Origin: a virus
Taxonomy: Duplodnaviria > Heunggongvirae > Uroviricota > Caudoviricetes
Virus record (IMG/VR): IMGVR_UViG_2541047715_000004
Direction: 5' to 3' (one strand)
DNA: 64,000 nucleotides
Shown here: positions 1 through 64,000 of the stretch, piece by piece
Layout: each line of letters starts with the position of its first letter
Numbering within the stretch: position 1 is the first letter of the stretch
Made by a program: the position numbers and the translations under genes
Notes under the pieces: model-generated
The model's input: only the letters and a program-made list of their open reading frames with translations
Told to the model about the DNA's origin: nothing
Database searches by the model: none

Positions 1-1
1 G

Positions 2-649
2 AGCACCACAACAAAAGACCTGATGACGCTGAAATGGGATGCGCTAAATATTCTGGTAAATGCCGTCATTAATGGCAGTCTTGGAGTTGGTACGACGAAT
101 GCGTTAGGTGGTAGCTCTATTGTTCTTGGTGATAATGACACCGGATTCAAACAGAATGGTGATGGTATTCTGGATGTTTACGCTAATAGTCAGCGAGTAT
201 TCCGCTTTCAGAATGGAGTTGCTATTGCTTTTAAAAACATTCAGGCTGGTGATAGTAAAAAGTTCTCGCTATCCAGCTCCAACACCTCCACAAAGAATGC
301 AACGTTTAATTTATGGGGTGCTTCAACCCGTCCAGTAGTTGCAGAGTTAGGCGATGAGGCAGGATGGCATTTCTATAGCCAGCGAAATACAGATAACTCG
401 GTAATATTTTCTGTTAACGGTCAGATACAGCCCAACAACTGGGGGAATTTTGATTCACGCTATGTAAAAGATGTTCGCCTGGGTACGCGAGTTGTTCAAT
501 TGATGGCGCGTGGTGGTCGTTATGAAAAAGCCGGACACGCAATTACCGGATTAAGAATCATTGGTGAAGTAGATGGCGATGATGAAGCCATCTTCAGGCC
601 AATACAAAAATACATCAATGGCACATGGTATAACGTCGCACAGGTGTAA
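2..649 (+). CDS. tail fiber protein, C-terminal part (gene starts upstream of window)
   Basis: Reading frame open to window start; Gly/Ser/Asn/Thr-rich sequence; immediately followed by a Tfa-type chaperone gene. Confidence 0.55.
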   Translation, partial: STTTKDLMTLKWDALNILVNAVINGSLGVGTTNALGGSSIVLGDNDTGFKQNGDGILDVYANSQRVFRFQNGVAIAFKNIQAGDSKKFSLSSSNTSTKNATFNLWGASTRPVVAELGDEAGWHFYSQRNTDNSVIFSVNGQIQPNNWGNFDSRYVKDVRLGTRVVQLMARGGRYEKAGHAITGLRIIGEVDGDDEAIFRPIQKYINGTWYNVAQV

Positions 650-1180
650 ATGATGCAGCATTTAAAAAATATTAAGTCTGGAAATCCTAAAACGAAAGAA
701 CAATATCAGCTAACAAAGAATTTTGATGTTATCTGGTTATGGTCCGAAGACGGAAAAAACTGGTATGAGGAAGTGAAGAACTTTCAGCCAGACACAATAA
801 AGATTGTTTACGATGCAAATAATATTATTGTCGCCATCACCAAAGATGCCTCCACGCTTAACCCTGAAGGTTATAGCGTCGTTGAGGTTCCAGATATTAC
901 AGCCAACCGCCGCGCTGATGATTCCGGTAAGTGGATGTTTAGGGACGGAGCTGTGGTTAAACGGATTTATACGGCAGACGAGCAACAACAACAGGCCGAA
1001 TCACAAAAGGCCGCGTTGCTTTCTGAAGCTGAAAGCGTTATTCAGCCACTGGAACGCGCTGTCAGGCTGAATATGGCGACGGATGAGGAGCGTACACGAC
1101 TGGAGTCATGGGAACGCTACAGCGTTCTGGTCAACCGTGTGGATACAGCAAAGCCCGAATGGCCACAAAAGCCTGAATAA
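650..1180 (+). CDS. tfa: tail fiber assembly protein (Tfa-like chaperone)
   Basis: 176 aa; start abuts stop of fiber gene; N-terminal region typical of Tfa/gpU/gpG family chaperones. Confidence 0.65.
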
Positions 1181-1342
1181 AAATTAAGGCCCGCTATCGG
1201 GCCTTGTCTCATTCATCATATTCAGCAATTGACCAAAAGGGTTGAGGAGCTTGAAACGAAGTTAAATTCACCTAAAGAATAAACAACTTCAATCGGGGCT
1301 GGAGCTAAACCAGCCCCTGCTTAAAAGTATAAGGATATATTT

Positions 1343-1597
1343 ATGAGCTATGGTGCACAGGTTTGGTCGCCATCAAGACAGGAGATGGTCAATGCGTTGG
1401 CCCCTGTTTATTACCTCGATTATTTTACTCCCTCTGGTTCAGGAAGTAGAACATATGAGGTTGAGGCGGGATTGGGAATCGACTATTACATAATGGACGT
1501 AACCAATGGAAAGTACACAAGTCTTACGGTTTCTGGAAATACCATTTCGTGGTCTGGAGCTAGTGGTAATTTAAACATATTGGTTTTTCAAAAATAA
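1343..1597 (+). CDS. hypothetical protein, paralog of 59078..59359
   Basis: 84 aa; shares ...FxPxxxDxFTxSGSxxTY...ISWSG... pattern with ORF 59078..59359. Confidence 0.45.
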   Translation: MSYGAQVWSPSRQEMVNALAPVYYLDYFTPSGSGSRTYEVEAGLGIDYYIMDVTNGKYTSLTVSGNTISWSGASGNLNILVFQK

Positions 1598-1690
1598 TGT
1601 ACGGAAGCAAGATATATCGATCTGACGGGAAGGTCTGGATGTCTCCTTCTTTGTCTCCTATCGTTTTTTCAGAGAAAGCAGGTTGTTTCT

Positions 1691-2206
1691 TTGTCCGGCG
1701 GAACAGAGTTTAACACCAAAATATCTCCAGATCGTTCACCGATTATTTTTGTTGCCTATTCGAAAGCTGTTTCATTAATAGCCAACAGAATAGTGCGTAA
1801 CAACCAGGTGATTTACAGTTTCGGAGGTCAGGGTAGCGACTCTAGTGCCACGATATACGTATTTTCGAAAGGTATAGCCAAAAAAGAAACTTGGGGCATG
1901 AGTTTTTTCAATGCACAAGGGGAGGAAATCTATAATACGGCAAATATCCCACTTTCATTTACCTTTCTTAATAATACGGAGTGGAACAGCTCTGGAGGGC
2001 ATGTTTTTGATTACCCTCCAGCGATAATCCCAACATATGCGAATGTGTTCGCTGTTCCAGTACCGGGCGGAGCCATGACAATGGTTTATGGATATGCGGC
2101 ATATGGAAATACTGTTAGCTCGATATTCGTAAACCAACTTAATGGCGGCCATAGTTTTAGCGTAAATGGCAGAGTACCGGTAATAAATAGAAATCTGTAT
2201 AACTGA
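1691..2206 (+). CDS. hypothetical protein, paralog of 59362..59976; 5-prime end ambiguous
   Basis: ORF begins at TTG; an ATG at 1597 in another frame encodes the paralog-like N-terminus (SDGKVWMSP...CFFV) and stops after about 38 codons. Confidence 0.4.
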   Translation: MSGGTEFNTKISPDRSPIIFVAYSKAVSLIANRIVRNNQVIYSFGGQGSDSSATIYVFSKGIAKKETWGMSFFNAQGEEIYNTANIPLSFTFLNNTEWNSSGGHVFDYPPAIIPTYANVFAVPVPGGAMTMVYGYAAYGNTVSSIFVNQLNGGHSFSVNGRVPVINRNLYN

Positions 2207-3811: not shown

Positions 3812-3959
3812 GACGCAGGCTCCAGGCGTGCTATTCTGCGATGCTGCAAATCCTATTTATGTGAGTAGAGAGGATTTTATGACTGAGGAAACGGAGCGAC
3901 AGTTGCTTATCCACAATACGATAGGTGAAAGGCTGTGTGAGTGGGGGCACCTGAACTGA
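3732..3959 (+). CDS. o-spanin (Rz1-like lipoprotein), overlapping Rz 3-prime end
   Basis: Internal ATG of ORF 3627..3959; MKRLMKCGKKMPLVFIASCLINGC signal/lipobox-like N-terminus. Confidence 0.45.
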   Translation: MKRLMKCGKKMPLVFIASCLINGCVIKTQAPGVLFCDAANPIYVSREDFMTEETERQLLIHNTIGERLCEWGHLN

Positions 3960-4183
3960 GTCGATGATTGATGAGTGGTCTCAGTTTACCTTTTATCCTA
4001 AAGATGGCATCTTCACTCATATACACGCCTGTTCACTCAAGCTCATGTTGAATCATTTAGTAATTTGATGTAGATTTATTAGGCATCCACGTAAGTGGGC
4101 ACATACAGGCTACGCATCCTCGTAGCCTTCAACCCCGAGAGGGGTGCCGCAATGACACTTGTGTTAACGGCTAAGGTGGACAC

Positions 4184-4567
4184 ATGCTGAACGAGAAACG
4201 TTCTATACAAACTATTCGCGATTGCACGAGTATTATCGAGACTCATGTGCTGAATCAGCACAAGCTTGAAGTACGTAAGCTCAATAATGACGCTATTGAA
4301 CCGGAAGACTCACGCTTCATCGTTACCTTCAAAGACGATGTTGAGCGCGCTGGTGCAAGCGTGAAGCCATTAGCTGAAGCAATTTACCTGAATGGTCGTG
4401 TTCGTTTTGTAGTCAAGCCAGCTAAACAGTACCCTGAGCTGTCTCGTTTTATCGAGGCTTTTTCGGAGGTTATTGAACATTCTATTCGCCGCTTCTTACG
4501 CAATCATGGTAGCATTGTCAGCACGGTTAAGGCTGATGATTCTGCTACAAAATGGCTCCTACACTAG
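4184..4567 (+). CDS. hypothetical protein (first gene of two-gene cassette)
   Basis: 127 aa ORF; overlaps next ORF by 16 nt. Confidence 0.45.
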   Translation: MLNEKRSIQTIRDCTSIIETHVLNQHKLEVRKLNNDAIEPEDSRFIVTFKDDVERAGASVKPLAEAIYLNGRVRFVVKPAKQYPELSRFIEAFSEVIEHSIRRFLRNHGSIVSTVKADDSATKWLLH

Positions 4568-5304
4568 ATAGCGCATATTCAAAAGATCTAAGCGAGTTTC
4601 CTCATAAAGGGGAGACTCGTGTTGTTCGTTTTGGCTTTCTTATCAATGAAGCCTCCCTCTATAAAATCTCAGAAATTGAAATCATTGAACCAGAAGATGA
4701 CATTTGCCTGTATGTCTCTATGGAACTTGTAGGTGCGCGCGACCAAGGCGACCTGAGCGAATTCATCTTAGATCGAGCGGATGAAGATGCCCCTGAAGAA
4801 GAGATTATCAAAGAGGTGCTCCAGTCCGGGCTTCTGGACGAAAACAAAAATACGATCGCTGGTAGGATAGCTCTGCGTGAATATAGTTTTGTTGAAGACG
4901 GCAATGAGATCGAATGTTACCAGGTAGCCGGTGTCGAAACTGTCAGAGAGCGTCGTCAGCGAGGATTGTGTCACCGTACCTATCTCTTTCTTCTTCATTG
5001 GTATGAGCATTTAGTCTGCGACGATACACAAACCATTCCTGGTGCTAAGATCTGGGCAGGGCCTCTCATGCGAACCGGCGATGTGCGTATATACAATGCC
5101 AAAACAGAAACGTTCGAGGATGTGTTAGGTGAGTACGGGATGGGGAAAGAAACCGGATTTTTGCCGTGGAACAGAGGATTGTTGCTTGATGCAGAGTTAA
5201 GCTCTTGGCTCCCAAACAAAGTGCAAGTTAACGTTCAGAAATTTATCGTACTTATCATCTCCCGCAAAACAAGAACTCCAGTAGGTTTATACCTAAAAGA
5301 TTAA
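4552..5304 (+). CDS. hypothetical protein (second gene of cassette)
   Basis: 250 aa ORF followed by strong intrinsic terminator. Confidence 0.45.
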   Translation: MAPTLDSAYSKDLSEFPHKGETRVVRFGFLINEASLYKISEIEIIEPEDDICLYVSMELVGARDQGDLSEFILDRADEDAPEEEIIKEVLQSGLLDENKNTIAGRIALREYSFVEDGNEIECYQVAGVETVRERRQRGLCHRTYLFLLHWYEHLVCDDTQTIPGAKIWAGPLMRTGDVRIYNAKTETFEDVLGEYGMGKETGFLPWNRGLLLDAELSSWLPNKVQVNVQKFIVLIISRKTRTPVGLYLKD

Positions 5305-5309
5305 AAATC

Positions 5310-5334
5310 AGGCGACTTTGGTCGCCTTTTTTGT
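5310..5334 (+). terminator. rho-independent terminator
   Basis: AGGCGAC-TTTG-GTCGCCT hairpin followed by TTTTTT. Confidence 0.75.
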
Positions 5335-5480
5335 TAACAGCCATTGATTCTCGCCTAAAAATTCTAAGGCAGCACCTACCATTTAACCTTTACACCACAG
5401 CCGTAGGCATTTAGGCTATATCACATATAAGAAAACAAGTTGTTTCAGACGATAATTATATACGCAAAGGGAACTCTCCA

Positions 5481-6508: not shown

Positions 6509-6517
6509 TATAAATCT

Positions 6518-6547
6518 CTAAGGCTGGTCTGCATTGGACAGCCTTAG
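6518..6547. terminator. bidirectional hairpin between convergent genes
   Basis: CTAAGGCTG...CAGCCTTAG inverted repeat between 6508 and 6569. Confidence 0.5.
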
Positions 6548-6568
6548 AAATATTTCGTTCTATGAAAG

Positions 6569-7642
6569 CTATTCGTAGTTAAGCTCACCGAACAGACTGA
6601 ACATCAAGTCACCATCCAAAATTTCAAAGGGCAACTCGACATACTCATCCTTATGTCTCGGAATTGCGTTGCCGTCGTTAGGGGCATTCTTGGTATAACC
6701 TTTTACATGTTTACCGTTTTCTTTTGTATACGGCAGCACGACAATTCGACCGTGATTTTTTGAAATGATAGTTCCTTCTTTCCAGAGCGTATTGCCTCTT
6801 GAGGTGGTTTCGCTTTCGCTAGCAACTTTAACACTCCAACCTACCTGATTTTTGTCCTCAAACCAGAAAACAAAGTTGCCAACAACCAGTACCTTTTGCC
6901 CATTCCTGAGAGCTTCATCCAGCATTCTTTTTACGCTGGCGAGTTGCAGTAACCGGTTAGCACGCGGCAGAAGCATTGAGCGAATAGTCGCTTTTGTTTT
7001 TCCCCAATGTGCAGCACCTGATAAACCAAAACCTCTGGCTATGCGTTCTTGGTAGCAGATCTTCGCTGTCTTAGCTTTGTTGTTATATGAACATTCCCAA
7101 GTGTTAGGAGCAACGAGTTGAAGTGAAACTTGGAATTTGGGAAGAAAAACAAAATGTAAGTAAGGCATCTCGCTTAGCACGTCAAAAAGGGGTTGACGCA
7201 AAGTTTCGTAATCTGGGTTAATTATTAACTCATTTAATGTCACTCGCGGATCGTTGGCGTGTGCCTTAATTGCTTCGTTGAGCATTATATGCTCTTCATC
7301 CATGAGACGTGATTTGGCTTTGAGTGCTTTGTCAACTTTCAAACGCAATGACTTCTTTTGAAACATAGATAGAGGAAGTTTTTCAATGTCAAAGCTCACG
7401 TTTTTATTCAGCTCTAATGCCGCTTTTCTTGCTTCAGGATAGTTATCGTAGTCGTCATCAAAAGCGTGGTTTGGCATACCACGATCAACATATCGCCGAT
7501 ACCAAGCAAGGGTTCCATCATTACGGAGTTTCAGACAGAACATCGACCATTTATTCCGTTCATATTTAGGCTGAGGCCAAAAAGCCAGTTCGGGAAGGCC
7601 ATATCCTGGAAGTCTATTCATGCGCATGGTGACAATATCCAC
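6569..7642 (-). CDS. hypothetical protein (lone minus-strand gene)
   Basis: 357 aa ORF with no motif I recognise; opposite orientation to flanking operons. Confidence 0.5.
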   Translation of the reverse strand: MDIVTMRMNRLPGYGLPELAFWPQPKYERNKWSMFCLKLRNDGTLAWYRRYVDRGMPNHAFDDDYDNYPEARKAALELNKNVSFDIEKLPLSMFQKKSLRLKVDKALKAKSRLMDEEHIMLNEAIKAHANDPRVTLNELIINPDYETLRQPLFDVLSEMPYLHFVFLPKFQVSLQLVAPNTWECSYNNKAKTAKICYQERIARGFGLSGAAHWGKTKATIRSMLLPRANRLLQLASVKRMLDEALRNGQKVLVVGNFVFWFEDKNQVGWSVKVASESETTSRGNTLWKEGTIISKNHGRIVVLPYTKENGKHVKGYTKNAPNDGNAIPRHKDEYVELPFEILDGDLMFSLFGELNYE

Positions 7643-7744
7643 GAGGCTAAAACACTGATTCTAACATGATCTCCCTTGATAAATCTGTCAATGACATAGC
7701 ATCTGGGGTTGGAGTCAAATTATGTTGTTCTTGGTATCCATTAG

Positions 7745-14172: not shown

Positions 14173-14388
14173 ATGATCGTATTAAGTAAACGGGAGAAGG
14201 AAACGCTTCATGAAATCAGTAAGTGGCCGGAGTTCCCTGAGTACTGGAAGCCTAAAACGCGAGCTAAGTTAGAGCGTTTAGGGTTGGTTGCAAACGTTTC
14301 TGAAACGTGGTGTTCGGCCAACTACCAGTTAACTGATAAAGGGAAAGTATTGCTACAGCAATTAGTAGAATCAGGAGTGTTAAAATGA
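14173..14388 (+). CDS. hypothetical protein
   Basis: 71 aa ORF. Confidence 0.35.
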   Translation: MIVLSKREKETLHEISKWPEFPEYWKPKTRAKLERLGLVANVSETWCSANYQLTDKGKVLLQQLVESGVLK

Positions 14389-15677: not shown

Positions 15678-15682
15678 ATTTA

Positions 15683-49771: not shown

Positions 49772-50875
49772 GTGTCACTCCTTTTGAATCGAGAGCATAC
49801 GAACGGTCAGGTAACAAACGCATCGTATGCAAAAGTTATTGAGACGGTGCTTAAAAGCGGCGTGCAGGCTGATGATCGCACAGGCACTGGTACTTTAAGC
49901 ACCTGCTACGTTCCCTCTTACTACATGCTTACTGGTGGGACTGTGCCGCTTATTTCTGGAAAGGCGGTAAATCTTAAGCCACTACTTGTCGAACTTGAGT
50001 GGTATCTGAAAGGCACGGGCAACATCCAATTTCTCAAGGATAACGGCGTTAAGATTTGGGATGCATGGGCCGATGAGAATGGCGATTTGGGGCCGGTTTA
50101 CGGTAAGCAGTGGCGTCGATGGGAAGATACCCGCATCGTGAGCCATAGTGAATATCTGAGCAAGATCGCTACTTTCCGTGAACGCGGGTACAAAGTCGAG
50201 GGATACCTGGGTATCAGTGAAGATCGCGTAGTGCTGTCCCGTGAAATCGATCAGCTACAGCGTATTGTCGATACACTGCGCACGAACCCTACCGATCGTC
50301 GCATCATGCTTAACGCATGGAACGTAGGCGAGCTTGAGGATATGAAACTGCCACCTTGCCACTTTGTCTTCTCTTTGTGGAGTCGTGAGCTGGATTTTGA
50401 AACCCGTTTAACGATGGCAACTGACATTGGTCTTCAACACAGTCGCCTCGGTTACGAGTCTATCTACACCAAGATGCTATACGATCTGGAGATGGACGGC
50501 AGTGTTACTGAAGCTGAACTGGATGAACTTGGAATCCCCAAACGCATCCTCAACTCCTGCCTCGTACAGCGTAGCGTAGACACTTTTGTTGGTATGCCAT
50601 TCAATATTGCTGGCTATGGCATTCTCACTCATTTTCTCGCGAAGATTACGGGTCACATGGCCGGTGCATTTGTGCATTTTGGCTTTGACGTGCATTTGTA
50701 CAACAACCACATGGAAGGTGTGTGTGAGCTAATGAAACGACAGGCTCCAGAGCATTCAGATCCGGTCGTTATTTTCCCTCATGAATGGTCAGAGTTGGAT
50801 GATTTCAAATGGGACGAGGTTTTAATTCTTGGCTATGACCCTCTACCGTGGATCAAGGTTCCAGTGGCGGTGTGA
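49772..50875 (+). CDS. thyA: thymidylate synthase (ThyA-type) with two insertions
   Basis: DRTGTGT, WADENGDLGPVYGKQWR and active-site LPPCH motifs match ThyA; 367 aa (about 100 aa longer than typical bacterial ThyA); GTG start. Confidence 0.8.
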   Translation: MSLLLNREHTNGQVTNASYAKVIETVLKSGVQADDRTGTGTLSTCYVPSYYMLTGGTVPLISGKAVNLKPLLVELEWYLKGTGNIQFLKDNGVKIWDAWADENGDLGPVYGKQWRRWEDTRIVSHSEYLSKIATFRERGYKVEGYLGISEDRVVLSREIDQLQRIVDTLRTNPTDRRIMLNAWNVGELEDMKLPPCHFVFSLWSRELDFETRLTMATDIGLQHSRLGYESIYTKMLYDLEMDGSVTEAELDELGIPKRILNSCLVQRSVDTFVGMPFNIAGYGILTHFLAKITGHMAGAFVHFGFDVHLYNNHMEGVCELMKRQAPEHSDPVVIFPHEWSELDDFKWDEVLILGYDPLPWIKVPVAV

Positions 50876-50876
50876 T

Positions 50877-51290
50877 ATGGCAAGAGGTATGTATGTCTTA
50901 TGCGAAATTGAAGGTGTGCTGGCAAATGCCAGCCATCGTAAATCAGTATCTGACGCGGATGCAGGCCAGCTCATTGCCGGTGATGAACTCATTTTCCCCA
51001 CCAGCCGTATGTTGCGTGGTTTTGCTCGCTCAGGGGCTGAAGTGGTGCTTATCAGTAGCCGCTCTGAAACTCTTGAAGCGCCAACTAAACGATGGCTGAA
51101 AGATTTTGGCGTTGATTATGACTGGCTTCATCTTGTACCGAATGGCACCAGTTATGAGAAGCATATTAAGCGCACATTAGCGGAGCATAAAGGCGATCTG
51201 CTTATCGCTGCGCTGGTGCACGATCCTCGACTCCGTGCCGCTTTAGCCGACTCTCACCATCGACCGGTCATCTATGAGGTGAGCAAATGA
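50877..51290 (+). CDS. hypothetical protein (possible degenerate HAD-like fold)
   Basis: Start overlaps thyA stop; YVLCEIEGVL resembles HAD motif I without the Asp pair. Confidence 0.3.
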   Translation: MARGMYVLCEIEGVLANASHRKSVSDADAGQLIAGDELIFPTSRMLRGFARSGAEVVLISSRSETLEAPTKRWLKDFGVDYDWLHLVPNGTSYEKHIKRTLAEHKGDLLIAALVHDPRLRAALADSHHRPVIYEVSK

Positions 51291-51763
51291 AGATGATCGC
51301 TGCTGTTGGCCGTAACTATGAGATCGGCATAGCGAATGAACTCCCCTGGCGTTGTTCTACCGATCTGAAGCTATTTAAGAGACTCACCAAAAACGCCACT
51401 GTCGTTATGGGGCGTAAAACGATGGAAAGTCTCAAACGCCCTCTTCCAGAGCGTCATAACCTCGTTTTGACGCGCTCTCATGGCTTTGTACCAAATGGAT
51501 TCTACCCTGCTGGTGTGGATGATGTGTTGCGATTACCAGAGCCTGTGTGGGTGATTGGCGGGGAACAAATTTACTCGCTATTCATGCCGCATGTTGAAGA
51601 GATTTGGCTCTCCCACATCGGCGTTGATGTACCAAACGCCGATGCATTCTTCCCGGCAAGCATGATGCGTAACTTAGGCTTTGTGCCTGTTGAAACAGCT
51701 TATACCCAACGAGCCAGCGAGGAAGAGCCTGGCTTTTCGCAGATCGTATACAGAAGGTCGTAA
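51287..51763 (+). CDS. folA: dihydrofolate reductase
   Basis: MIAAVGRNYEIGIANELPW N-terminal motif and GRKT segment; 158 aa. Confidence 0.85.
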   Translation: MKMIAAVGRNYEIGIANELPWRCSTDLKLFKRLTKNATVVMGRKTMESLKRPLPERHNLVLTRSHGFVPNGFYPAGVDDVLRLPEPVWVIGGEQIYSLFMPHVEEIWLSHIGVDVPNADAFFPASMMRNLGFVPVETAYTQRASEEEPGFSQIVYRRS

Positions 51764-52407
51764 TGGATTACCGGATTGGGATCACTGGTGCTCAGGGCAG
51801 TGGGAAAACAACCCTGGCAAAATATATCGACAAACATTACGGAATCCCTTACGTGGATGCTGGTGTCGGAAGTTTGATGAGCCGCCTCGGTGTTCGAGTA
51901 GGTGAGTCTATGCCTCTATATGAGCGGCTTCAGATTCAAATGGAAATAGCAAAGCATATAGAGCTACTTACGCGTGGTGTTGAAGGCTTTGTTATCGATC
52001 GCACACCTGCTGATGTTATGGCCTACACGTTGGATTTGGTCGGCCATACCAATGAAGATCGATGTATTGAGTTAGCCCTCGATATCGAAAAGTTTTGCCA
52101 CAAAACTGCTATTTCAAACTTTAACGCCATTGCTGGCTTACGCCCGGGAGTCGCTCTCTCAGAGCGAGATTACTTGCGATCACAACGAGCATCATTAGAC
52201 CGTCTGTATGTCGCTCGTATTGATGCGTTGATGTGCGGGGAACTGACAAAAATTCACCTGCATCCGCAAAGGGGGGATCTGCAAACCTTCGTCGTTTCCA
52301 ACCGATATCGCACGGTTGAAGCAAGAGCCAGATCAGTGATGAGAATGCTAGATAACGCTGTAGAAAAGATAGAAAACCGGTTCTGTGGCCGAGTGACCGT
52401 TCATTAG
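51763..52407 (+). CDS. P-loop NTPase (putative nucleotide kinase)
   Basis: Walker A GAQGSGKTT near N-terminus; 214 aa. Confidence 0.45.
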   Translation: MDYRIGITGAQGSGKTTLAKYIDKHYGIPYVDAGVGSLMSRLGVRVGESMPLYERLQIQMEIAKHIELLTRGVEGFVIDRTPADVMAYTLDLVGHTNEDRCIELALDIEKFCHKTAISNFNAIAGLRPGVALSERDYLRSQRASLDRLYVARIDALMCGELTKIHLHPQRGDLQTFVVSNRYRTVEARARSVMRMLDNAVEKIENRFCGRVTVH

Positions 52408-52468
52408 AAATTGTTCGCCTCTTCGACATTGCGACAATAAAACTCTCAAAATGGGTTAAGGATAAAAA

Positions 52469-52888
52469 ATGTTTAGTGAAATGTTGCTTGAAGATGAACT
52501 GGATCGGAAAACAACAGAGGCTTTGATTCGTGTAGCGGACGAACATTCCCGGTCGCTTATGAGCGATCGAGAGGCTCGTCTGGCTATTCGTGCCATATTC
52601 GAAACTGCGCAGGGGCTTGTTGGCGCACAAGTAGGTGAAGCCATTAACATCGCCATGTCTCAGTTCAGTGAAGACAGTAAAAAGCCTCTGTTTCCTATGC
52701 ATTTGATGCTGGCTGGTGGCACGGTGCTTTATATCTCTGTTTGTCTGGATAGCAACCAAATCAATATTCTCAACACTGCGTCAGGTAAGTGGAAAGATCC
52801 GATTGTCTGTGAAACCAGTGAAGAAACTTTGAAAAAAGCGGCTCAATTTGTACGTAGCGCACTACTTAAGGGCGCTAAGAAGTTGTAA
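52469..52888 (+). CDS. hypothetical protein
   Basis: 139 aa ORF. Confidence 0.4.
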   Translation: MFSEMLLEDELDRKTTEALIRVADEHSRSLMSDREARLAIRAIFETAQGLVGAQVGEAINIAMSQFSEDSKKPLFPMHLMLAGGTVLYISVCLDSNQINILNTASGKWKDPIVCETSEETLKKAAQFVRSALLKGAKKL

Positions 52889-52897
52889 GGAGTTCTG

Positions 52898-53455
52898 ATG
52901 ACAACGATTGTTGCAGGCATCGATATCGAGTCTACGGGACTGGATTTCCTTGCTGGTCATAAAATTATTGAAATCGCAATTACCCGCTATGAACTGGAGA
53001 CACAGAGACATATTGATAGTCTGGAGATGCGTTTTAACCCTCGCAGAAACATAGATCCGAAAGCTCAAGCCGTTCATGGCATTTCATTAGAACAGCTCGC
53101 AGCTGAACCTTTGTTGTCAAATCATGCCAGCGAAATTGGCGCTTATATGGGGGCATGTAGTGCGTGGATTGCTCATAACGGCGAAGCGTTTGATATACCA
53201 TTTATTCGACACGAGTTTTCAGGGTATGGAGTAAGACTGCCAGACGTTCCCGTTATAGATACTATGTTATCGGGATTGTGGGCCACAGAAGACGGTAAAC
53301 GTCCTCGCCTTGAAGAGTTGGCCTTCTCTCTTGGCTTTATATACGATCATGCCAAAGCACATAGTGCCTTATATGACACAAACTTAATGATGCAATGCTT
53401 CTTTAAGGCACGTAATAAGTACGGATTTTTTAAATTACCCTCTGAAATTGTGTAA
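52898..53455 (+). CDS. DnaQ-like 3-prime-5-prime exonuclease (DEDDh)
   Basis: Exo motifs IDIESTGLD, HNGEAFDIPF, HSALYD; 185 aa. Confidence 0.8.
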   Translation: MTTIVAGIDIESTGLDFLAGHKIIEIAITRYELETQRHIDSLEMRFNPRRNIDPKAQAVHGISLEQLAAEPLLSNHASEIGAYMGACSAWIAHNGEAFDIPFIRHEFSGYGVRLPDVPVIDTMLSGLWATEDGKRPRLEELAFSLGFIYDHAKAHSALYDTNLMMQCFFKARNKYGFFKLPSEIV

Positions 53456-53460
53456 AACAA

Positions 53461-53497
53461 AAGCCTACTTTAAAGAGAGTTTAAAGTAGGCTTTCTT
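53461..53497 (+). terminator. intrinsic terminator hairpin
   Basis: AAGCCTACTTTAAA...TTTAAAGTAGGCTT followed by T-rich tract. Confidence 0.65.
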
Positions 53498-53615
53498 TTA
53501 AAGAACAGCCGCCTTTCAATCATTTCCTGCCTGTATTTAATACTTTTCCGCCTGATAGGTTTAGTCAAAATGTAGCTATCGAAACGCAAATGTAACCAAG
53601 CAGAAGGAGACTTAC

Positions 53616-54425
53616 ATGAGTTCGGTTGAAAATGTAATGACAAATGATGATCTGGACGAGCTGACAGCCATGTTGCAATCACTTGATGAACCAGTAAAAA
53701 AAGCCGCACAGGTTGAAAATACTGATGATATTGACGATCTGCTGCTCGGCCTCGATGCTGGCGTAGCCATGAGTTCTGATGATGTTGCCGAAGAACTGTT
53801 CAATGAAGAAAAAGCAGGTGATTTCAGCTCTGCTTTAAATGAGTTGGAGTTAGCGCATGAGCCTATAAACGTAATTAACGCTGAAAGTGTTGAATCTGCC
53901 GAAAACGAGCCAGAACAATTGGGATTGATTGAGGTTGAAGAGTGTGTTGATGTTAATGATGAATTAAAAGTTCAACAGTCAAATGATAGCAACACAAATA
54001 AAAAAGCGCGTACTGCAAGAGGTCCTCGTTTTACTTTAAGTGATAAAGATGATTCGTTTTTCAATAAAGCAGGCTTAGAAACAGATATTTTCTTAGACGC
54101 TTACGAAAACGCGCCTGTCAAAGCAAAGGATAAGATATTAAACCTTCTTAATTGGTTTAGCGGAGGTCCAGATATTAGTGTTTACACGGTAATTTCCATG
54201 AGACACCTTCTCACAGAAAAGAAGGCTACAAGTAATAGTATTAAGATTGCTTTAATGAGCAATCCAGAAAAACCGTATCCGCTTAACACTGCGTCAACTC
54301 AGGCTGGGCAAATGATGGCTGTATTTCCAGCGACAGGAATTGCCGTTAGAGACGGTGGAAATCTAACATTGAACGAAGAATCACCGATCGTTAAGAAGTT
54401 TGTAGCGGAGTACACTATTGGATGA
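53616..54425 (+). CDS. hypothetical protein with strongly acidic N-terminal half
   Basis: About 30 percent Asp/Glu in first 115 residues; followed by terminator hairpin 54505..54545. Confidence 0.45.
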   Translation: MSSVENVMTNDDLDELTAMLQSLDEPVKKAAQVENTDDIDDLLLGLDAGVAMSSDDVAEELFNEEKAGDFSSALNELELAHEPINVINAESVESAENEPEQLGLIEVEECVDVNDELKVQQSNDSNTNKKARTARGPRFTLSDKDDSFFNKAGLETDIFLDAYENAPVKAKDKILNLLNWFSGGPDISVYTVISMRHLLTEKKATSNSIKIALMSNPEKPYPLNTASTQAGQMMAVFPATGIAVRDGGNLTLNEESPIVKKFVAEYTIG

Positions 54426-54608
54426 CGTCCCCCTACTGAAAATAAAGCCCATAGAGAGCTTTATAGTGCTGGGTAAGCCAATCACATATCCAGCACCACA
54501 AAAACGCGCCAGAGAGCTTCTCGTTTGCATTTCTGGCGCGTTTTATTTGATTGCCAGACATAAAATCAAATGCAAAAATAGGTAATCACTTACCTATCGA
54601 GAAAGACG

Positions 54609-55202
54609 ATGATTGCAGCCGAAAAAATCAAACAGCGAAAGCGCGACAACTCTCTTCGTGACCTCTGGAGAACACCTGACTGGCTGTTTTCTGCCATTCA
54701 ACGTTATCTTGGAGTGACATTTGATGTTGACGTTGCCTGCAACAAGGACAATGCGAAGCTGCCTAATTTCATAGGCGTTGAGCGTGATGCTTTGAAATCT
54801 GAATGGGGACAGCCAGGTACAATTGCCTTCCTCAATCCACCCTACTCCAAAATCTCCCCCTGGATTGATGCGGCTATACGTGAGCAGGCTCGCGGAGTTA
54901 CAACAGTGATGCTAATTCCTCAATCCCTCGATACAAAGTGGTATGAGCGTGCAACAGAGTGTGCGAATGAGACGATTATTCTGTCTGGTGGCCGCGTAGC
55001 GTTTGTCGAGCCTGACGTCAATTTGGGTCAGGTAGAAGTAAACATCAACCCCGGTGGCAGTATGCTCGTTGTTTTTCGAGGATTCTGTCAGGACGCTGGG
55101 CACTCTATAAGCAAGATCCCTTTGGACGTCATGAAAAGTCTGGGAGGGTATGATCCTGCGAATGTGATCAGGAAAAAAAGACAATCAAAGAAGGCTGCTT
55201 AG
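54609..55202 (+). CDS. DNA N6-adenine methyltransferase, orphan phage Dam type
   Basis: Catalytic NPPY motif (FLNPPYSKISPW); 197 aa; no adjacent nuclease gene. Confidence 0.7.
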   Translation: MIAAEKIKQRKRDNSLRDLWRTPDWLFSAIQRYLGVTFDVDVACNKDNAKLPNFIGVERDALKSEWGQPGTIAFLNPPYSKISPWIDAAIREQARGVTTVMLIPQSLDTKWYERATECANETIILSGGRVAFVEPDVNLGQVEVNINPGGSMLVVFRGFCQDAGHSISKIPLDVMKSLGGYDPANVIRKKRQSKKAA

Positions 55203-55220
55203 TTTGTTCTGGCGTCTGTA

Positions 55221-55281
55221 ATTAGCCTGCTTCTGTATATATAAATAACTACATATTAATTATTAATATACGGAAGCAGGC
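55221..55281. repeat. long GC-stem / AT-loop hairpin element, copy 2
   Basis: GCCTGCTTCTGTATATATAAATA...TATACGGAAGCAGGC; near-identical arms to copy at 7745..7803. Confidence 0.6.
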
Positions 55282-55364
55282 TGTTTTATATCAGAGACTC
55301 CCAGACCTGAACACCACTACAGAATCCACTAGAACCCCTTCCCAGACGCTTTAAAATCGATTTT

Positions 55365-55619
55365 ATGAACCACTTTAAGGAAACCAACATGTCATACCCG
55401 ACTAATGTCGTTGCGCTCGTAGAGAGCGATTTTCTGGCCCAGGCTCGTGAAATGATGAAAGATCGTGAGCAGGCTTTCAACTTGTACGAATGGGCAATTA
55501 AGTGCTTGCATCTTGGGGAGCATCGCGAACTTGTTGAACAGCTTTTAGGTGAGTTGATCAACGAGGTGTTTGCCTTGAATGTTCAACTACATGGTCGAAA
55601 AAATAATCAATCGAAATGA
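55365..55619 (+). CDS. hypothetical protein
   Basis: 84 aa ORF. Confidence 0.35.
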   Translation: MNHFKETNMSYPTNVVALVESDFLAQAREMMKDREQAFNLYEWAIKCLHLGEHRELVEQLLGELINEVFALNVQLHGRKNNQSK

Positions 55620-56205
55620 TAGATAAGTACAAACTATTCATAAAGTGAATTGTAAGTGCTAAGATCTGATAGTTTCCAGTCGTAGACTGGAGGCTCGACC
55701 TGATGGGTGGGGGTAAGCGTCACTGGCGTCAGGTTTAAAAAAGCTCACTACCAGCGTAGAACCGGCACCGTTTAGGGGTTGGGGAAGGGGGAACCAAAGT
55801 GAGCAGAGACAAGGGTCACTTTATGATTGTCGAGTCTGGGGTGTTTCGAGAGGTTGAATCCAGTACTCCCCTTCATAAAGTGTGGGAAGATCTCGGTTCT
55901 GGGGTGCTGTCATCCATAACTTCCCAAGCCTAAGCTGGCAGTAGACTTAGGTCATAACTTTTCAGGTTATGAAACGACCAGGTTGGTGAGGAAATTTTGT
56001 ACTCACCTCCCTGGGAGAGTATTACCTGAAAAGACAACCTCTCACTTCGTTCGAGGTGAACTTCACTCACTTCGTTCGTTCAGTTCAGGTTTATAAAAAC
56101 CTGTTCTGGGAAGTAATTTGTTTATTTTAATAATTATTAACACGCACGCGTGTGCGCACGCGCGAGGAAAAAAAAATCGGCGCGGCGCTTGATTCAGGAG
56201 TTTAT

Positions 56206-56796
56206 ATGACGACGAAGACACCAGCCCGATCGCAAGCAAAAACTCGCAAAAATGACAAAAACAAAAATTCTCCCCGCACCAATTCCACAACGCCTGTCGT
56301 AGAGTTCAATCCCCAGCTTAAAACCGTGAAAATCTTCAGTGATGGCTCTTGCCTTAAAAATCCGGGTGGCCCGGGCGGTTACGGTATAGTTCTCCAGTAT
56401 GGTGGTGAGGAACGCGAGTTCTCAGATGGTTTTCATAGCACCACCAATAACCGCATGGAGATGATGGGGGCACTTATCGGGCTGGAGCGTTTGAAATATC
56501 CATGCAACGTTATTTTGTACTCTGATAGCCAGTATCTGAAAAACGGCATGACACAGTGGATGAAATGGTGGAAACGCAATGGATGGATGACTTCTGACAA
56601 AAAACCGGTAAAGAATGTTGATCTGTGGAAGCGTCTGGATGAGGCCGCAAGTCGACATAATGTTCGCTGGAAGTGGGTTAAAGGTCACGCCGGGCATCGT
56701 GAAAATGAAATATGTGATCGACTCGCGAAGATCGCAGCTTTTTCAGCAGCAGATATGCCTCACAAGAAAGATATTGGTTTTGTTTATAACAAGTAG
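56206..56796 (+). CDS. rnhA: ribonuclease HI with basic N-terminal extension
   Basis: KIFSDGSC...GGPGGYG and C-terminal HAGHxxNExxDxLA RNase HI motifs; about 40-aa Lys/Thr/Asn-rich N-terminal extension; start ambiguous (table ORF from 56152). Confidence 0.8.
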
Positions 56797-60079: not shown

Positions 60080-60556
60080 ATGAATACAGCTCTTTCCATC
60101 ATCGACGATACCAACTCAAACACTGCTATCGATTATCGTCAGGAAATGAACGTCATCCACGAAATCGTAGCCGAGTGCGAGAAAGAGATCGCCTTCATGT
60201 ATCAGGTTCACGACTTCGTTTATGGCGACGAACGCCACAACATGATTAATCGCCTGCTGCAACTGAACCATCGACCAGATGAAGAACGCTCACGTTTGAA
60301 TCGAGCTTGGCTGGATAAAGTCGATCTGGAATGGGTGAAACAGAATATTTGGGCCGAGTACTGGAGGAAGGTCACGGATATGACTAACGTTTTGCTGATC
60401 ATGCCAGCTTCCCGTCGCGACGAGTGGCGTGAGCAGTTTATAGAGGGCAAACAGGAAGTCATCAAAACTGACAGAACCGGCTACCAGATGAAGGTTAAAG
60501 AGTTCGTTGGTGTACCTGAGTTCAAAGTGGATACAAACATCCCTACGATGGTTTGA
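60080..60556 (+). CDS. hypothetical protein convergent with hsdR
   Basis: 158 aa ORF. Confidence 0.4.
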   Translation: MNTALSIIDDTNSNTAIDYRQEMNVIHEIVAECEKEIAFMYQVHDFVYGDERHNMINRLLQLNHRPDEERSRLNRAWLDKVDLEWVKQNIWAEYWRKVTDMTNVLLIMPASRRDEWREQFIEGKQEVIKTDRTGYQMKVKEFVGVPEFKVDTNIPTMV

Positions 60557-60614
60557 TCTGACAGCTATCTGCAATTTGCACAGATGTCTGCCAGATCTGG
60601 TTCAGATTAATACA

Positions 60615-63600
60615 CTATATCTGCCCACCTACTCCTTTGAACTTTTCAATAAACGTGACGATTTTCTGGAAAACGGTCTGTTTTTTCGTTTTATATTGCG
60701 GGTTTAACGGACTAAGTTTTGGTAATGTCTCGTTTAATTCTGTGCCATTTTCGGTGGCGTATTCGCGTTTTAAAGACGTGCGAATATAGCGTTTCGCCGC
60801 CTCTTCATTGAGATTTTCTTCTTTTATCAATGCTTCTGCTTCACGTTGCTGTTCGCGTTGAGCAAACGTAAAGAATGCCTCAATGATACTGGCTTTGTCT
60901 GGTAAATCATCCAGGTTCGTTTGCTGAATAAAATCGACCACCAGGCCCTCTTTCGCCCGGTTCCCCAGGCTTGAACGAATTAAGCGTTTGACCTCTTCGA
61001 TCATTTCGCCCTTGCCTTTATTTTGTCTGTTGTGTTCGAAAATCAGTCCAAGGATATAATCCAGGTTTATTTCCTGAGACTTCAGCAAATCGACCTCAAA
61101 AACTACGTCATCCCAGTCAGTGGTTGATTTCTCTTTTTTCTCAGCTTCTTTCTCACGGCGCTGCCAGTCGCGAATATCGTTATAGGCAGAACGATAATCC
61201 TGAATCTTGCGTTCAGCAGGGAGACGAATTGTTTGCAATTCAGCGAACTTTTCATCATCCACATAATGTTCTGCTTTGAATTTTTCTACCGCAACAGGAT
61301 CGCTAAGATCGATTTGTTGCAGGGCTTTCAGCGTGGCAAATTCATCATAGTTTTGCAGGATGTTCTCGGCACGCAGGTATTCACCAAACAGTTTTACGAA
61401 GTCTTTCTTCTCTTTTTCACTTTCAATACTGGCAGGGTCAGGGAACCGTTGTTCCAGTTCTGAAACTACTGCCATAAAGCCGCGTTTAGCTTCACCAGTG
61501 GCAGCATCTGTAAAGCCTTCCATATACTCAGCATAACTCTTTTCTAACACCACATTTTTAGTATTTTTATCACCAAACAGCGTTATGGCATCAATGGTTG
61601 AGCGTTCCAGATCCCGAAAAGTGACGATGTTACCGAAGGTTTTAGTAGCGTCATAAATGCGGTTGGTACGGGAGAATGCCTGCATCAGGCCGTGAAAACG
61701 CAAGTTTTTATCGACGAATAGCGTGTTCAATGTTGGAGCGTCGAAGCCGGTTAAAAACATCCCAACGACAATTAACAGATCGATATCCTGATTTTTAACC
61801 CGTTGGGCTAAATCACGATAGTAGTTCTGAAAACCGTTACTGTCGGTGCTGAAGTTAGTTTTAAAATAGCTGTTATACTCACGAATTGCAGCGTCAAGAA
61901 ACTCTTTAGCACTGCTGTCCATTGCGCTGGTATCAAAAGTTTCATCGGAAATTTCACCAATGGCATTTTGTTCTTCATTGGCGGCAAAGGAGAAGATTGT
62001 TGCAACACGCAGCGGTTTATAGGTAGCCGATTTATTAGCTGCTTCCTCTTGTAACCGTTTAAACGTCGCGTAATAGGCTTTCGCGGCATCCACGCTACTC
62101 ACTGCCAGCATGGCATTAAAGCCTTTGGAACCTGGGAAAGTACGGTGGGTCTTCTGGCGGAAGTTATTCAGAATATATTGCGTAATTTCCTGTATACGCA
62201 TGGGATGAAGAAATGCCTGCTGATTTTCAGCCGCACTCAGTTTTTTCTCGTCGGTTTCTGTCTCTAAAGATTTAAACTGTGGCCGCACATCGTTGTAGTC
62301 CACCTTGAATTTGAGCACTTTTTCATCACGAATCGCATCGGTAATTACATACGAATGCAATTCACGACCAAATACGCTGGCGGTCGTTTCTGAGCCTAAG
62401 GCGTTTTCCGGGAAAATAGGTGTGCCGGTAAAACCAAACTGATAATAGCGTTTGAATTTCTTCTTCAGGTTTTTCTGCGCTTCTCCAAACTGGCTGCGGT
62501 GACATTCATCAAATATAAACACCACTTGCTGATTGTATACAGGCAGGTCGCTTTCTGCTTTCATCAGGTTATTAAGTTTCTGAATAGTGGTGACGATAAT
62601 TTTGTTATCGTCCTTATCCAGATTGCGTTTAAGACCTGCGGTATTTTCCGAGCCGTTGACGCTGTCTGGCGAAAAACGCTTATATTCATTCATGGTCTGG
62701 TAATCGAGGTCTTTCCTGTCGACCACGAAGAAGACTTTATCAATAAAGTCCAGCTCTGTTGCCAGACGCGCGGCTTTAAAGCTGGTGAGGGTTTTACCTG
62801 AACCGGTAGTGTGCCAGATATACCCACCGCTTTCCGGTTTTGACCAGTTCTTCGCTGTAAAGGAACTCTTAATTTTCCACAGAATGCGCTCAGTGGCGGC
62901 AATCTGGTACGGTCGCATCACCAGTAGCGTTTGGCTAACATCGAATACGCTGTAGTTCACTAAGACATTAAGCAGGGTATGTTTCTGGAAAAAGGTGGCG
63001 GTAAAGTCTTTGAGGTCTTTAATCAGCGTGTTGTCTGATTTCGCCCAATTCATGGTGAAGTCAAAACTGTTTTTATCGCGCTTTGTCGTGTTGGCAAAGT
63101 AACGGGTATCGGTGCCGTTGGAAATGACAAACAGTTGCAGATACTTAAACAGAGAATTTTCGCTGTTAAAACTCTCTTTGCTGTAACGATGTATCTGGTT
63201 AAAGGCCTCACGAATCGCCACGCCGCGCTTTTTCAGTTCGATTTGTACCAGCGGTAAGCCATTAACCAGGATCGTGACGTCATAACGGTTAGCATGAGAA
63301 CCCGTCTGTTCAAACTGCTGGATAATCTGCACCTTGTTGCGCATGAGATTCTTTTTATCTATCAAATAGATGTTCTCAAGACGCTCGTCATCAAAAATAA
63401 AGTCGCAAATATAGTCGATATGGATTTTACGGGTCTTATCCAGGATGCCATCGCTCGGGTTATCCAGATACTGCTCCGTGAAACGCCGCCATTCGCTGTC
63501 ATTAAACACCACACCATTGAGGTTCTGAAGCTGTTCCCGAACGTTGGCCAGCATCGCCGACTGAGATTTTACGGAAATAAATTCATAGCCCTGATTCCGC

Positions 63601-63731
63601 AGATCCTGAATCAGTTCACGTTCCAGGTCCGATTCGCTCTGGTAGCTGTCGCCTGTTTGCTCGGCTTTGATGTACTTATCAAGAACGATAAAGTTATTGG
63701 ATTCAGCAATGGTGTGTGTCTGATGAGTCAT
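60615..63731 (-). CDS. hsdR: type I restriction enzyme R subunit (HsdR)
   Basis: 1038 aa; N-terminal PD-(D/E)xK-like nuclease segment ([19 protein letters not shown]), helicase motif I TTGSGKT, motif II FDECHRS. Confidence 0.85.
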
Positions 63732-63852
63732 AGCGCATCCTTTGTGCCGTCTGGCAAGGGCCGGAAGGGCTTTAAGGGCGACTTCCGGCGTGTAAAAAAT
63801 AGTCTCTATATAGACCGGATGTTAAGGTGATCCGGTCGGTAGCAATGGTCAA

Positions 63853-64000
63853 TTAGTTACTGATAGTTTCAGGTTTGGGAAAACTGAACAGTAAATCACG
63901 ATAGTACTCGTATTGTTTCTGGCGCAACTCGATTTCACGCGGAAGACCTTCGGTGATGGAATTGGTCAAAGCATCAAATTTATCCAGTAATTTCACTATT
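63853..64000 (-). CDS. hsdS: type I restriction specificity subunit (HsdS), 3-prime end only
   Basis: Minus-strand translation of window end gives ...[44 protein letters not shown]-stop, typical HsdS C-terminal helix; gene continues beyond window. Confidence 0.65.

Follow-up and report, generated by a model that had tools for sequence, protein, structure and literature searches.

Backbone, cargo and a conserved palindrome in a 64,000-nucleotide stretch assigned to the SSU5 supergroup of phage-plasmids

Phage-plasmids of the SSU5 supergroup fall into the SSU5_pHCM2, pKpn, pSLy3 and pMT1 groups, which share persistent phage and recombination genes, including those of tyrosine recombinases, and a variable shell, in which restriction-modification (R-M) systems and PapC/PapD are found (PMC7969092). 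Phage-plasmids of these types are known extrachromosomally only (PMC9600943). In a published typing scheme, pSLy3 is the Escherichia coli type and SSU5_pHCM2 the Salmonella type (PMC12977533, Table 1), and the protein profiles of the two types cross-match (PMC12977533). Two E. coli elements are of particular relevance here: Cyrano, which is maintained as a plasmid at ~5.5 copies per cell and yields siphovirus particles (PMC9928086), and pECOH89, a phage-like plasmid for which kinship with pLF82, pHCM2 and SSU5 has been reported (PMC3999498). In this contribution, we analyze a stretch of 64,000 nucleotides from the viral IMG/VR record IMGVR_UViG_2541047715_000004 (hereafter, the window), for which an earlier interpretation made without database searches (the sequence-only reading) had proposed that modules of plasmid maintenance, of a lytic phage and of defence reside together on a single element. 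The window is, with high confidence, about 58% of a ~110-kb temperate phage-plasmid of the SSU5 supergroup, of the kind represented by E. coli pECOH89 and pLF82 (Cyrano).

An element of this kind is already known and well catalogued, its cargo list likewise has been described already, and it is established that SSU5-type phage-plasmids carry genes for resistance, defence and virulence, so the assignment itself adds nothing new. Its practical value is a base-level map that separates backbone from cargo in this particular element.

Nearest relatives and the plasmid state

All three parts of the window have their best matches in ~110-kb circular non-mobilizable plasmids of E. coli, Shigella and E. 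fergusonii, at 98-99.9% identity. The plasmid pHH12_P1 (CP058914.1; circular, 109,732 bp, non-mobilizable) aligns to 62,001 of the 64,000 bases of the window at 93-99.5% identity and departs from it solely at 27666-29651; the part of pHH12_P1 that lies outside the window encodes the portal, capsid, tape measure and terminase genes, and its morphogenesis set is complete. Among phage records, the top match is Cyrano, which is the same element as pLF82 (97.9-98.7% DNA identity). The genome of SSU5 is collinear with the window throughout, with 78-80% DNA identity over 42.7 kb and with protein homologues, in the same order, for 55 of the 67 window genes. The comparison of the entire window with SSU5, pHCM2 and their relatives returned phage-plasmids, as the sequence-only reading had anticipated, and allowed us to delineate backbone and cargo.

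The location of the relatives points in the same direction. A 25-kb query is covered to at least 80% in 77 of 5,426 complete E. coli genomes, and all 30 replicon records listed among those matches are 106-156 kb in size. The palindrome that accompanies the tyrosine recombinase gene int of the window is found in 252 of the 5,426 genomes (4.6%), once per record and in plasmid records in 252 cases out of 252, with 0 places on chromosomes. Because the palindrome is never chromosomal in complete E. coli genomes, chromosomal integration at a matching site is unlikely. The listed matches are circular plasmid records, which supports the extrachromosomal state of the relatives.

One could nevertheless regard the window as part of a prophage integrated in the chromosome, given that its recombinase is a P4-like integrase with the C-terminal motif YDRHDY and that tRNA genes are located nearby. 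Such a possibility is vanishingly small: none of the best matches is an integrated prophage, the size range of the near-full matches listed and the absence of the palindrome from chromosomes argue against it, and the window possesses an iteron replicon and a ParA of its own. For the relatives, which are found in plasmid records only, integration is rejected.

The gene content of the window agrees with a phage-plasmid as well. The phage functions are represented by tail-fibre, endolysin and spanin genes and the plasmid functions by a Rep3-type initiator, 17 iterons and ParA. When every item of the proposed combination of plasmid-maintenance, phage and restriction modules was checked, all were found to be present, with some of the names weaker than proposed. 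Being a phage-plasmid is thus supported by direct observation of gene content, of collinearity with SSU5, of near-identity to circular plasmids and of a plasmid-only location. The label of a lytic phage has to be dropped, since the element is temperate. The proposed SSU5/pHCM2 family is correct at the level of the supergroup, to which the homologues shared with SSU5 attest, and is less apt at the level of the type: judging from the sequence comparisons, the element probably belongs to the pSLy3 type of E. coli rather than to the SSU5_pHCM2 type of Salmonella, because the host is E. coli and the nearest relatives are pLF82 and pECOH89.

Replicon, partition and a proposed life cycle

The plasmid replicon occupies positions 37587..39495 on the minus strand. 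It consists of a border hairpin (37587-37610), 12 iterons downstream of rep (37626-38157), the rep gene itself (38158-39252, minus strand, probable start ATG 39252), 5 iterons upstream of rep (39273-39373), 6 GATC sites (39410-39476) and 2 DnaA-box-like 9-mers (39479-39495). The iteron core ACCGCTGACAGCATA has 19 matches at no more than 3 mismatches, with 1.17 expected; 17 of these flank rep, all in one orientation. Together with the match of the Rep protein to Pfam Rep3_N (Rep3 WH1 domain, 8.6e-9), this confirms the iteron replicon recognized earlier. As read from the sequence, putative DnaA boxes and an A/T-rich GATC region lie beside the origin iterons at 39410-39495. The resulting layout, in which DnaA boxes, GATC repeats, five iterons, rep and downstream iterons follow one another, matches that of P1 oriR/incC/incA. 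The rep open reading frame (ORF) annotated in pHH12_P1 is 404 aa long (38158-39372, minus strand) and reads through the five origin iterons; because it does so, the in-frame ATG at 39252, which gives a protein of 364 aa, is more likely to be the start of rep.

The Rep protein is 49-50% identical to the RepA proteins of Cyrano and SSU5, which are themselves 91% identical, and the iteron sequence is different from theirs. The replicon allele is that of pECOH89 (99.0% identity over rep and the iterons) and is present at 95% identity or more in 122 plasmids. A replicon swap was considered as a new finding and rejected, since the allele is common and the difference between the RepA proteins of pECOH89 and pLF82 (48% identity) was published in 2014 (PMC3999498).

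The partition locus begins with the gene of a ParA ATPase (5481-6149, plus strand), whose 222-aa product contains the deviant Walker A motif GGTKGGPGKST and matches the MipZ/AAA_31/CbiA profiles and NCBIfam ParA_partition, the last of these at 1.9e-33 and 115.7 bits, which is below the model cutoff of 180. The stop codon of parA is overlapped by a gene encoding a 119-aa partner (6149-6508, plus strand). Both proteins of the pair are 91-100% identical to their counterparts in SSU5 and Cyrano. Of the ParA-type partition pair proposed earlier, ParA is confirmed by the profiles; its partner displays a pattern that resembles a ribbon-helix-helix (RHH) fold by eye and has a weak match to aCcr1 (RHH; 2.3e-4) and no match in Pfam.

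These components suggest a life cycle, the steps of which are modelled on known families. In the lysogenic state, the element would replicate from an origin similar to P1 oriR, with Rep binding the 5 iterons beside the DnaA boxes and the GATC repeats, and the 12 downstream iterons would limit the copy number. The Walker-type ParA and its small, presumably DNA-binding partner would segregate the element, and the tyrosine recombinase, acting at a palindrome of the 13-7-13 type, would probably resolve plasmid multimers in the way Cre does at loxP. Upon induction, the helicase, primase, Pol III alpha, gp32/UvsY/RecA, SbcCD and nucleotide-synthesis enzymes encoded by the element itself may drive recombination-dependent replication, after which siphovirus particles, specified by genes outside the window, would be released by the endolysin-spanin cassette. 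The cargo is confined to a few fixed places, where conserved flanks may permit its exchange with other phages and phage-plasmids.

Several points weigh against parts of this picture. The virion genes of the element itself lie outside the window. The choice of pSLy3 over SSU5_pHCM2, made from the host and the nearest relatives, is a probable one. No direct repeats that could serve as a centromere were found in 5250-5520 or just downstream of the parA operon, and searches found no profile support for the names of the candidate holin and of 'HicA', both described below. Multimer resolution is a role that we infer for the recombinase, and a model of the Cre/lox kind leaves three other conserved copies of the palindrome arm unexplained. 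Finally, a pSLy3-type element, that of strain 166F4, gave no virion DNA after treatment with mitomycin C (PMC9600943, PMC12977533).

This last observation is what would be expected if the element were a domesticated phage-like plasmid that no longer makes infectious particles. The low virion output of Cyrano (PMC9928086) and the truncation of one backbone gene of the window (60080-60556) are in line with domestication. Conversely, the lysis, replication and tail-fibre genes in the window are intact, the pHH12_P1 morphogenesis set is complete, and the recent exchange of the tail-fibre tip suggests that adsorption is under selection. On balance, we consider domestication unlikely, and we favour a temperate phage-plasmid.

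The tyrosine recombinase, its palindrome and the accessory-gene hotspot

The int gene (18526..19629, plus strand) encodes a tyrosine recombinase that matches Phage_integrase (2.9e-10), phrog_1 (4.8e-47) and the P4-like integrase domain PRK09692 (1.3e-8). The catalytic motifs R (ARRPDE), K, LRRT, NHS and Y (RVYDRHDY) can be read in its translation, the first His of HxxR being replaced by Arg. A sequence comparison with solved structures returned no PDB chain at E <= 1, and no sequence kinship with Cre was detectable. The gene is present in pMT1, pHCM2 and pKPHS1 and absent from SSU5. At its 3' end it is met by the gene of a regulator of the XRE type with a helix-turn-helix (HTH) domain (19624..20010, minus strand; HTH_19 at 7.8e-4, below cutoff, and phrog_8 at 1.3e-11), whose 100%-identical counterpart in Cyrano, CYRAN_45, carries the annotation of a putative repressor.

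The palindrome (18395..18427) is located 98 nt upstream of int and reads AATGATTCCATAC-CTACTAT-GTATGGAATCATT, that is, perfect inverted arms of 13 nt separated by a spacer of 7 nt; its single-stranded form folds with z = -6.96. The expectation that a tyrosine recombinase gene would be found with a lox-like site is therefore borne out. The palindrome is present in 69 of 71 related IMG/VR loci. Of these 69, 66 have identical arms and three deviate from them at the outer bases only; the spacer has seven variants among the 69 loci, one of which is the reverse complement of another. Two plasmids that are more distant, one of K. pneumoniae subsp. ozaenae and one of Moellerella, have a palindrome in the same place, with a 7-nt spacer and changed arms. 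Such a pattern of sequence variation agrees with a core site evolving in step with its tyrosine recombinase, and the resolution of multimers is the most likely role of Int and the palindrome together. In K. pneumoniae pKPHS1 (L083, positions 4088-6125), a reverse transcriptase gene, retA (4554-6038), is found between the palindrome and int and not to the left of the palindrome; a group II intron or a retron-type insertion may account for it.

The 13-nt arm is not confined to the palindrome. Five exact copies are found with 0.0 expected, the outlying ones at 14384(+), 15396(+) and 24446(-), and no others are present elsewhere in the 110 kb of pHH12_P1. The outlying copies extend to (A/G)ATGATTCCATAC-ATC, and every copy is oriented towards the palindrome. 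Copy A (AATGATTCCATACATC, 16 nt; 14384..14399, plus strand) overlaps the start codon of a 50-aa ORF, copy B (15396..15411, plus strand) is intergenic and lies upstream of tRNA genes, and copy D (24443..24458, minus strand) is antisense within codons 85-89 of dnaE. Among 27 distinct sequences for each copy, copy B forms an invariant block amid unconserved intergenic DNA, and copy D is invariant over its five dnaE codons, wobble bases included, with third positions varying in the adjacent codons. The copies are kept unchanged across lineages in which the flanking DNA is only 72-76% identical, and in the Salmonella, Klebsiella and Yersinia lineages the int gene itself contains an additional copy.

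Several explanations of these copies were tried and rejected. Constraint on the coding sequence, or a shared mini-ORF (MIPYI), is not tenable, since the frames and strands of the copies differ, most of them have no ribosome-binding site and the stop codons are not conserved. An inversion switch between copies A and D is not tenable either, with 0 inverted arrangements in the 71 loci and with no covariation between A and D of the bases that follow the arm. The SSU5 genome retains copies A, B and D without int, which might be taken as proof that Int is not the protein that binds them; we reject this argument as well, because the flanks of A, B and D in SSU5 are near-identical to those of an int-carrying lineage (L047), so the loss of int from SSU5 looks recent.

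The P1 C1 operators are asymmetric and scattered over the genome, some of them in pairs, and the dispersed 16-mers can be likened to them. The palindrome and the 16-mers could thus be operators of a DNA-binding regulator, either the XRE protein or Int, instead of, or besides, being a site of recombination. The number of exact copies and their absence from the remainder of the 110 kb speak for operators, as do the invariant footprints at A, B and D, the last even at wobble positions. Directly left of the palindrome in Cyrano is CYRAN_43 (minus strand), the top-expressed gene of Cyrano lysogeny at 723x the local background (PMC9928086, Table 1), and a weakly conserved A/T-rich motif that resembles a -10 element is located ~10 nt left of the palindrome. 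On the other hand, half-sites of 13 nt around a spacer of 7 nt have the size typical of a tyrosine-recombinase core and are longer than one HTH would be expected to cover, the copies are clustered within 10 kb and not placed ahead of the main lytic operons, and no promoter geometry shared by A, B and D was found. We regard an operator function as doubtful, and a recombination core site used by Int is the reading that we prefer for the palindrome.

The region left of the palindrome is highly variable. In this element, the stretch at 16331..18376 (plus strand) contains a lipoprotein-like ORF (16431-17012, plus strand) with no match in PADLOC, Pfam or NCBIfam, a nuclease-like ORF (17020-17832, plus strand) whose N-terminus matches PADLOC PDC-M68A (8.3e-25), endonuclease effectors of cyclic-oligonucleotide-based antiphage signalling systems (CBASS) and SduA, and the glutaredoxin gene grx (18067-18315, plus strand); apart from grx, there is no DNA match to this content in Cyrano. 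When lineages are compared, homology is lost in many loci at 18393-18395, where the palindrome has its left edge, and 17 or more distinct left flanks are represented among the 69 loci. The distance between copy B and the palindrome (15412-18394 in the window) ranges from 1.6 to 5.7 kb. In relatives, the cargo at this hotspot includes an AbiGi homologue (5.3e-47), a toxin-antitoxin-like pair, a YafO toxin and chaperone-usher/fimbrial operons; in pHCM2 it includes PhoH and Gp49, and in Y. pestis pMT1 it is the F1 capsule operon caf1R-caf1M-caf1A-caf1. In pMT1 (L081), where caf1 ends at 5292 and the palindrome is at 5921-5953, the caf1 region comes within 3 nt of the palindrome and the usual A/T-rich motif is missing beside it.

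The breaks at the palindrome edge, the multitude of left flanks, the close approach of the caf1 region and the nature of the cargo, with AbiGi, toxins and fimbrial operons in it, would all be accounted for if Int and the palindrome served as a module that integrates or captures cassettes and thereby supplies the hotspot with cargo. Capture of this kind should leave duplicated sites, and none were seen: no locus examined has a second full site, or duplicated or hybrid sites, around a cassette. There is no chromosomal copy of the site in E. coli and there are no inversions among the 71 loci. A conserved site next to a variable region would produce the same breakpoints by ordinary homologous exchange. 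A capture module is accordingly improbable, more so than an operator function, and homologous exchange between conserved flanks is the simplest explanation of the hotspot, because no cassette is flanked by duplicated sites.

Upstream of the hotspot, four tRNA genes, for Asn, Tyr, Thr and Ser, are located at 15603..16153 (plus strand; predicted by ARAGORN, three of them confirmed by Rfam). An extra tRNA-Tyr gene (15683-15769) brings their number to four, compared with three in Cyrano and one in SSU5; two tRNAs were reported for pECOH89 (PMC3999498).

It is tentatively proposed that the arm sequence is part of an undescribed network of sites, in which the palindrome is the fixed border of the hotspot, and that this network is either a regulatory circuit or a set of recombinase sites that shape the cargo. 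We found no paper mentioning the motif in the searchable literature, and its recurrence, as well as the hotspot with caf1 in pMT1, was not found described in the papers searched. If such a network exists, it would provide a handle on the role of a conserved 'integrase' in an element that never integrates, and on the question of why a single position collects cargo such as the plague F1 capsule operon in pMT1.

Backbone, cargo and comparison with named systems

The backbone genes were assigned by matches to Pfam or PHROG profiles, and no disrupted lysis, replication or tail-fibre genes were found within the window. Near the left end, at 1343..2206 (plus strand), two genes of small membrane or outer-membrane proteins are homologues of SSU5_023 and SSU5_024 (phrog_557 and phrog_425; 68-74% identity to the SSU5 proteins) with no DNA match in Cyrano. 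They are followed by the lysis genes, which comprise a holin candidate (2517-2852, plus strand), an endolysin (2839-3558, plus strand; phrog_873 at 6.4e-89) and an Rz spanin (3560-3811, plus strand; Rz-like spanin at 5.7e-25), and whose products are 82-95% identical to those of SSU5 and 89-99% to those of Cyrano. Of the lysis genes named earlier, the endolysin and the spanin are upheld by profiles, and the name of the holin comes from the SSU5 and Cyrano annotations only.

Replication genes follow, beginning with a DnaB-like helicase (8701-10041; Pfam DnaB_C), a primase (10051-11304; Toprim_2/DNAG_N) and an ATP-dependent DNA ligase (12691-14013; DNA_ligase_A_M), all on the plus strand and 86-94% identical to their SSU5 counterparts; the two ORFs between primase and ligase are 41.5% and 69.9% identical. 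Further along the plus strand lie genes of CobT-like (20573-22681) and AAA_5/CobS-like (22777-24012) proteins and of Pol III alpha (dnaE, 24193-27699), and then a group at 29651..34841 that encodes a UvsY-like protein, a gp32-like single-stranded DNA-binding protein, a 5'-3' (FEN) exonuclease and RecA. The gp32 match is strong (1.7e-66) and the UvsY-like match is weak. The RecA/UvsX-like recombinase (32502-34841, plus strand) is interrupted by a 1,275-nt insert (32694-33968) that encodes an intein of ~425 aa, for which the RefSeq records of relatives give an N-terminal intein splicing region and a LAGLIDADG endonuclease. Cyrano and pHH12_P1 also have the intein, which SSU5, pMT1 and pHCM2 lack. 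SbcD-like (40473-41558) and SbcC-like (41788-43704) proteins and, after one ORF of no assigned function, a RuvC-like resolvase (44447-45016) are encoded on the same strand. The T4-like replication and recombination genes listed by the sequence-only reading are thereby accounted for, as gp32, FEN exonuclease, SbcCD, RuvC-like resolvase, intein-containing RecA, DnaB, primase, ligase and Pol III alpha, with UvsY the weak member.

The genes at 45090..56796 (plus strand) encode NrdA, NrdB, a MazG-like protein, ThyA, DHFR, an AAA ATPase, a DnaQ-like exonuclease, a Dam methylase and RNase H; with glutaredoxin added, NrdA, NrdB, ThyA, DHFR and the MazG-like protein substantiate the proposed nucleotide metabolism. 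The thymidylate synthase (49772-50875) matches Pfam Thymidylat_synt, the ThyA type, at 2.2e-78, and its 100%-identical Cyrano homologue is labelled ThyX.

Relative to Cyrano and SSU5, the cargo of the window is the P2-like fibre tip, three small cassettes, the stretch from the tRNA genes to int, the cspA-like gene, the pECOH89-type replicon and the R-M cassette. The segments without DNA homology to Cyrano are 1-2445, 3940-5373, 6511-7739, 15864-16054, 16331-18050, 37596-39385 and 60554-64000. Comparison with Cyrano and SSU5 thus agrees with the earlier view of the restriction locus, and of several of the cassettes, as cargo on a backbone. The notion of terminator-bounded cassettes holds in part: strong hairpins are found at seven cargo borders, and the terminator-like sites as such (20, 27 and 28 in three 20-kb stretches, with ~18 expected) are weakly enriched.

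The tail-fibre module at the left end consists of a P2-like C-terminal tip of the fibre (2-649, plus strand; tail-fibre PHROGs), the assembly gene Tfa (650-1180, plus strand; Caudo_TAP at 2.7e-37) and a bidirectional terminator hairpin that closes the module (1186-1205), so that both a fibre tip and an assembly gene bear out the tail fibre noticed earlier. Bases 1-1214 share 96% identity with P2-like phages (Citrobacter phage Shae_phiSM, P88-4B11) and 92% with genes H/G of P2 itself, and they have no DNA match in Cyrano; the tip has a partial protein match in SSU5 (28% of its length), and Tfa has a match in neither. By these alignments, the module is a swapped host-range cassette that replaces the P1 S-like fibre end of Cyrano.

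Two small cassettes are found near the partition locus. The one at 3940..5373 (plus strand), with ORFs 4184-4567 and 4552-5304 and a hairpin at 5310-5327, has no DNA match in SSU5 or in Cyrano, where a KacT toxin-antitoxin pair is located instead; its ORFs are 33-37% identical to SSU5_031/032 and match phrog_2594 and phrog_3307. The other, at 6511..7739 (minus strand), contains an ORF of 357 aa (6569-7642; phrog_22329 only) and an inverted repeat at its border (6514-6551) and is absent from Cyrano and SSU5 at both the DNA and the protein level. Neither the ORFs at 4184-5304 nor that at 6569-7642 matched Pfam, PADLOC or NCBIfam.

Another variable segment (27666..29651, minus strand) carries a cspA-like cold-shock gene with a thermoregulator leader (27978-28396, minus strand; 185.7 bits in Rfam, Pfam CSD at 4.1e-33) and two ORFs annotated as HicB and HicA in Cyrano (28548-29147 and ~29172-29396, minus strand). 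The HicB-like protein matches PADLOC PDC-M06B (1.6e-32), and the 'HicA' ORF has no Pfam match. The cspA-like gene lies just downstream of dnaE in the segment that is different in pHH12_P1, and Cyrano has no annotated coding sequence there.

At the right end, the type I R-M cassette (60615..64000, minus strand) includes a complete hsdR (60615-63731, minus strand) and the last 48 codons of hsdS (63856-64000, minus strand), in agreement with the restriction locus recognized earlier; hsdM is annotated in pHH12_P1 past the end of the window. HsdR has five Pfam domains, HSDR_N, SWI2_SNF2/ResIII, T1R_D3-like and EcoR124_C among them, and matches PADLOC REase_I at 1611.9 bits. The cassette is 95% identical to that of a P1-like (Punavirus) phage, vB_EcoM-673R5. 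Next to it is a truncated DUF4942/DNA-methyltransferase gene (60080..60556, plus strand) of 158 codons, compared with 561 in SSU5 and Cyrano, whose homology to SSU5_095 and CYRAN_90 ends at 60553. The alignments indicate that insertion of the R-M cassette truncated the methyltransferase gene after codon 158 and that this cargo is common to two families of phage-plasmids.

Among the named systems, the E. coli phage-like plasmids pECOH89 (NC_023916 / HG530657) and p09EL50 have the same replicon allele as the window. The plasmid pECOH89 carries ISEcp1-blaCTX-M-15 (PMC3999498), whereas the window has no resistance gene and has a type I R-M cassette. Cyrano, i.e., pLF82 (OV696614), aligns to 51.6 of the 64 kb and shares with the window the gene order, int, the XRE gene, the palindrome and the RecA intein. 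It differs in its replicon allele (Rep 50% identical, different iterons), its P1 S-like tail fibre, its KacT pair, CYRAN_30 in place of ORF 6569-7642, the content of its hotspot, an intact DUF4942 gene and the absence of type I R-M. In Salmonella phage SSU5 (JQ965645), most backbone enzymes are 80-95% identical to those of the window and some conserved ORFs only ~30-75%; int, the XRE gene, grx, the palindrome, the RecA intein and type I R-M are all missing from it. S. Typhi pHCM2 has the int-XRE-cobT-cobS-dnaE block and the palindrome, as the window does. Both SSU5 and pHCM2 have a Salmonella host and belong to a published type different from the probable pSLy3 type of the window (PMC12977533).

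More distant systems share single modules with the window. Phage P1 also has a tyrosine recombinase gene beside a palindrome of the 13-N-13 kind, and a P1-like phage has the same type I R-M cassette; the P1 spacer, however, is 8 nt long and not 7, P1 is a myovirus and not a siphovirus, and it uses ParA/ParB in contrast to the small ParA and small partner of the window. Yersinia pestis pMT1/pFra resembles the window in its int-XRE-cobT-cobS-dnaE block, in its palindrome arms and in the motif copy within dnaE, and to the left of the palindrome it has the F1 capsule operon where the window has tRNA genes and small cargo genes.

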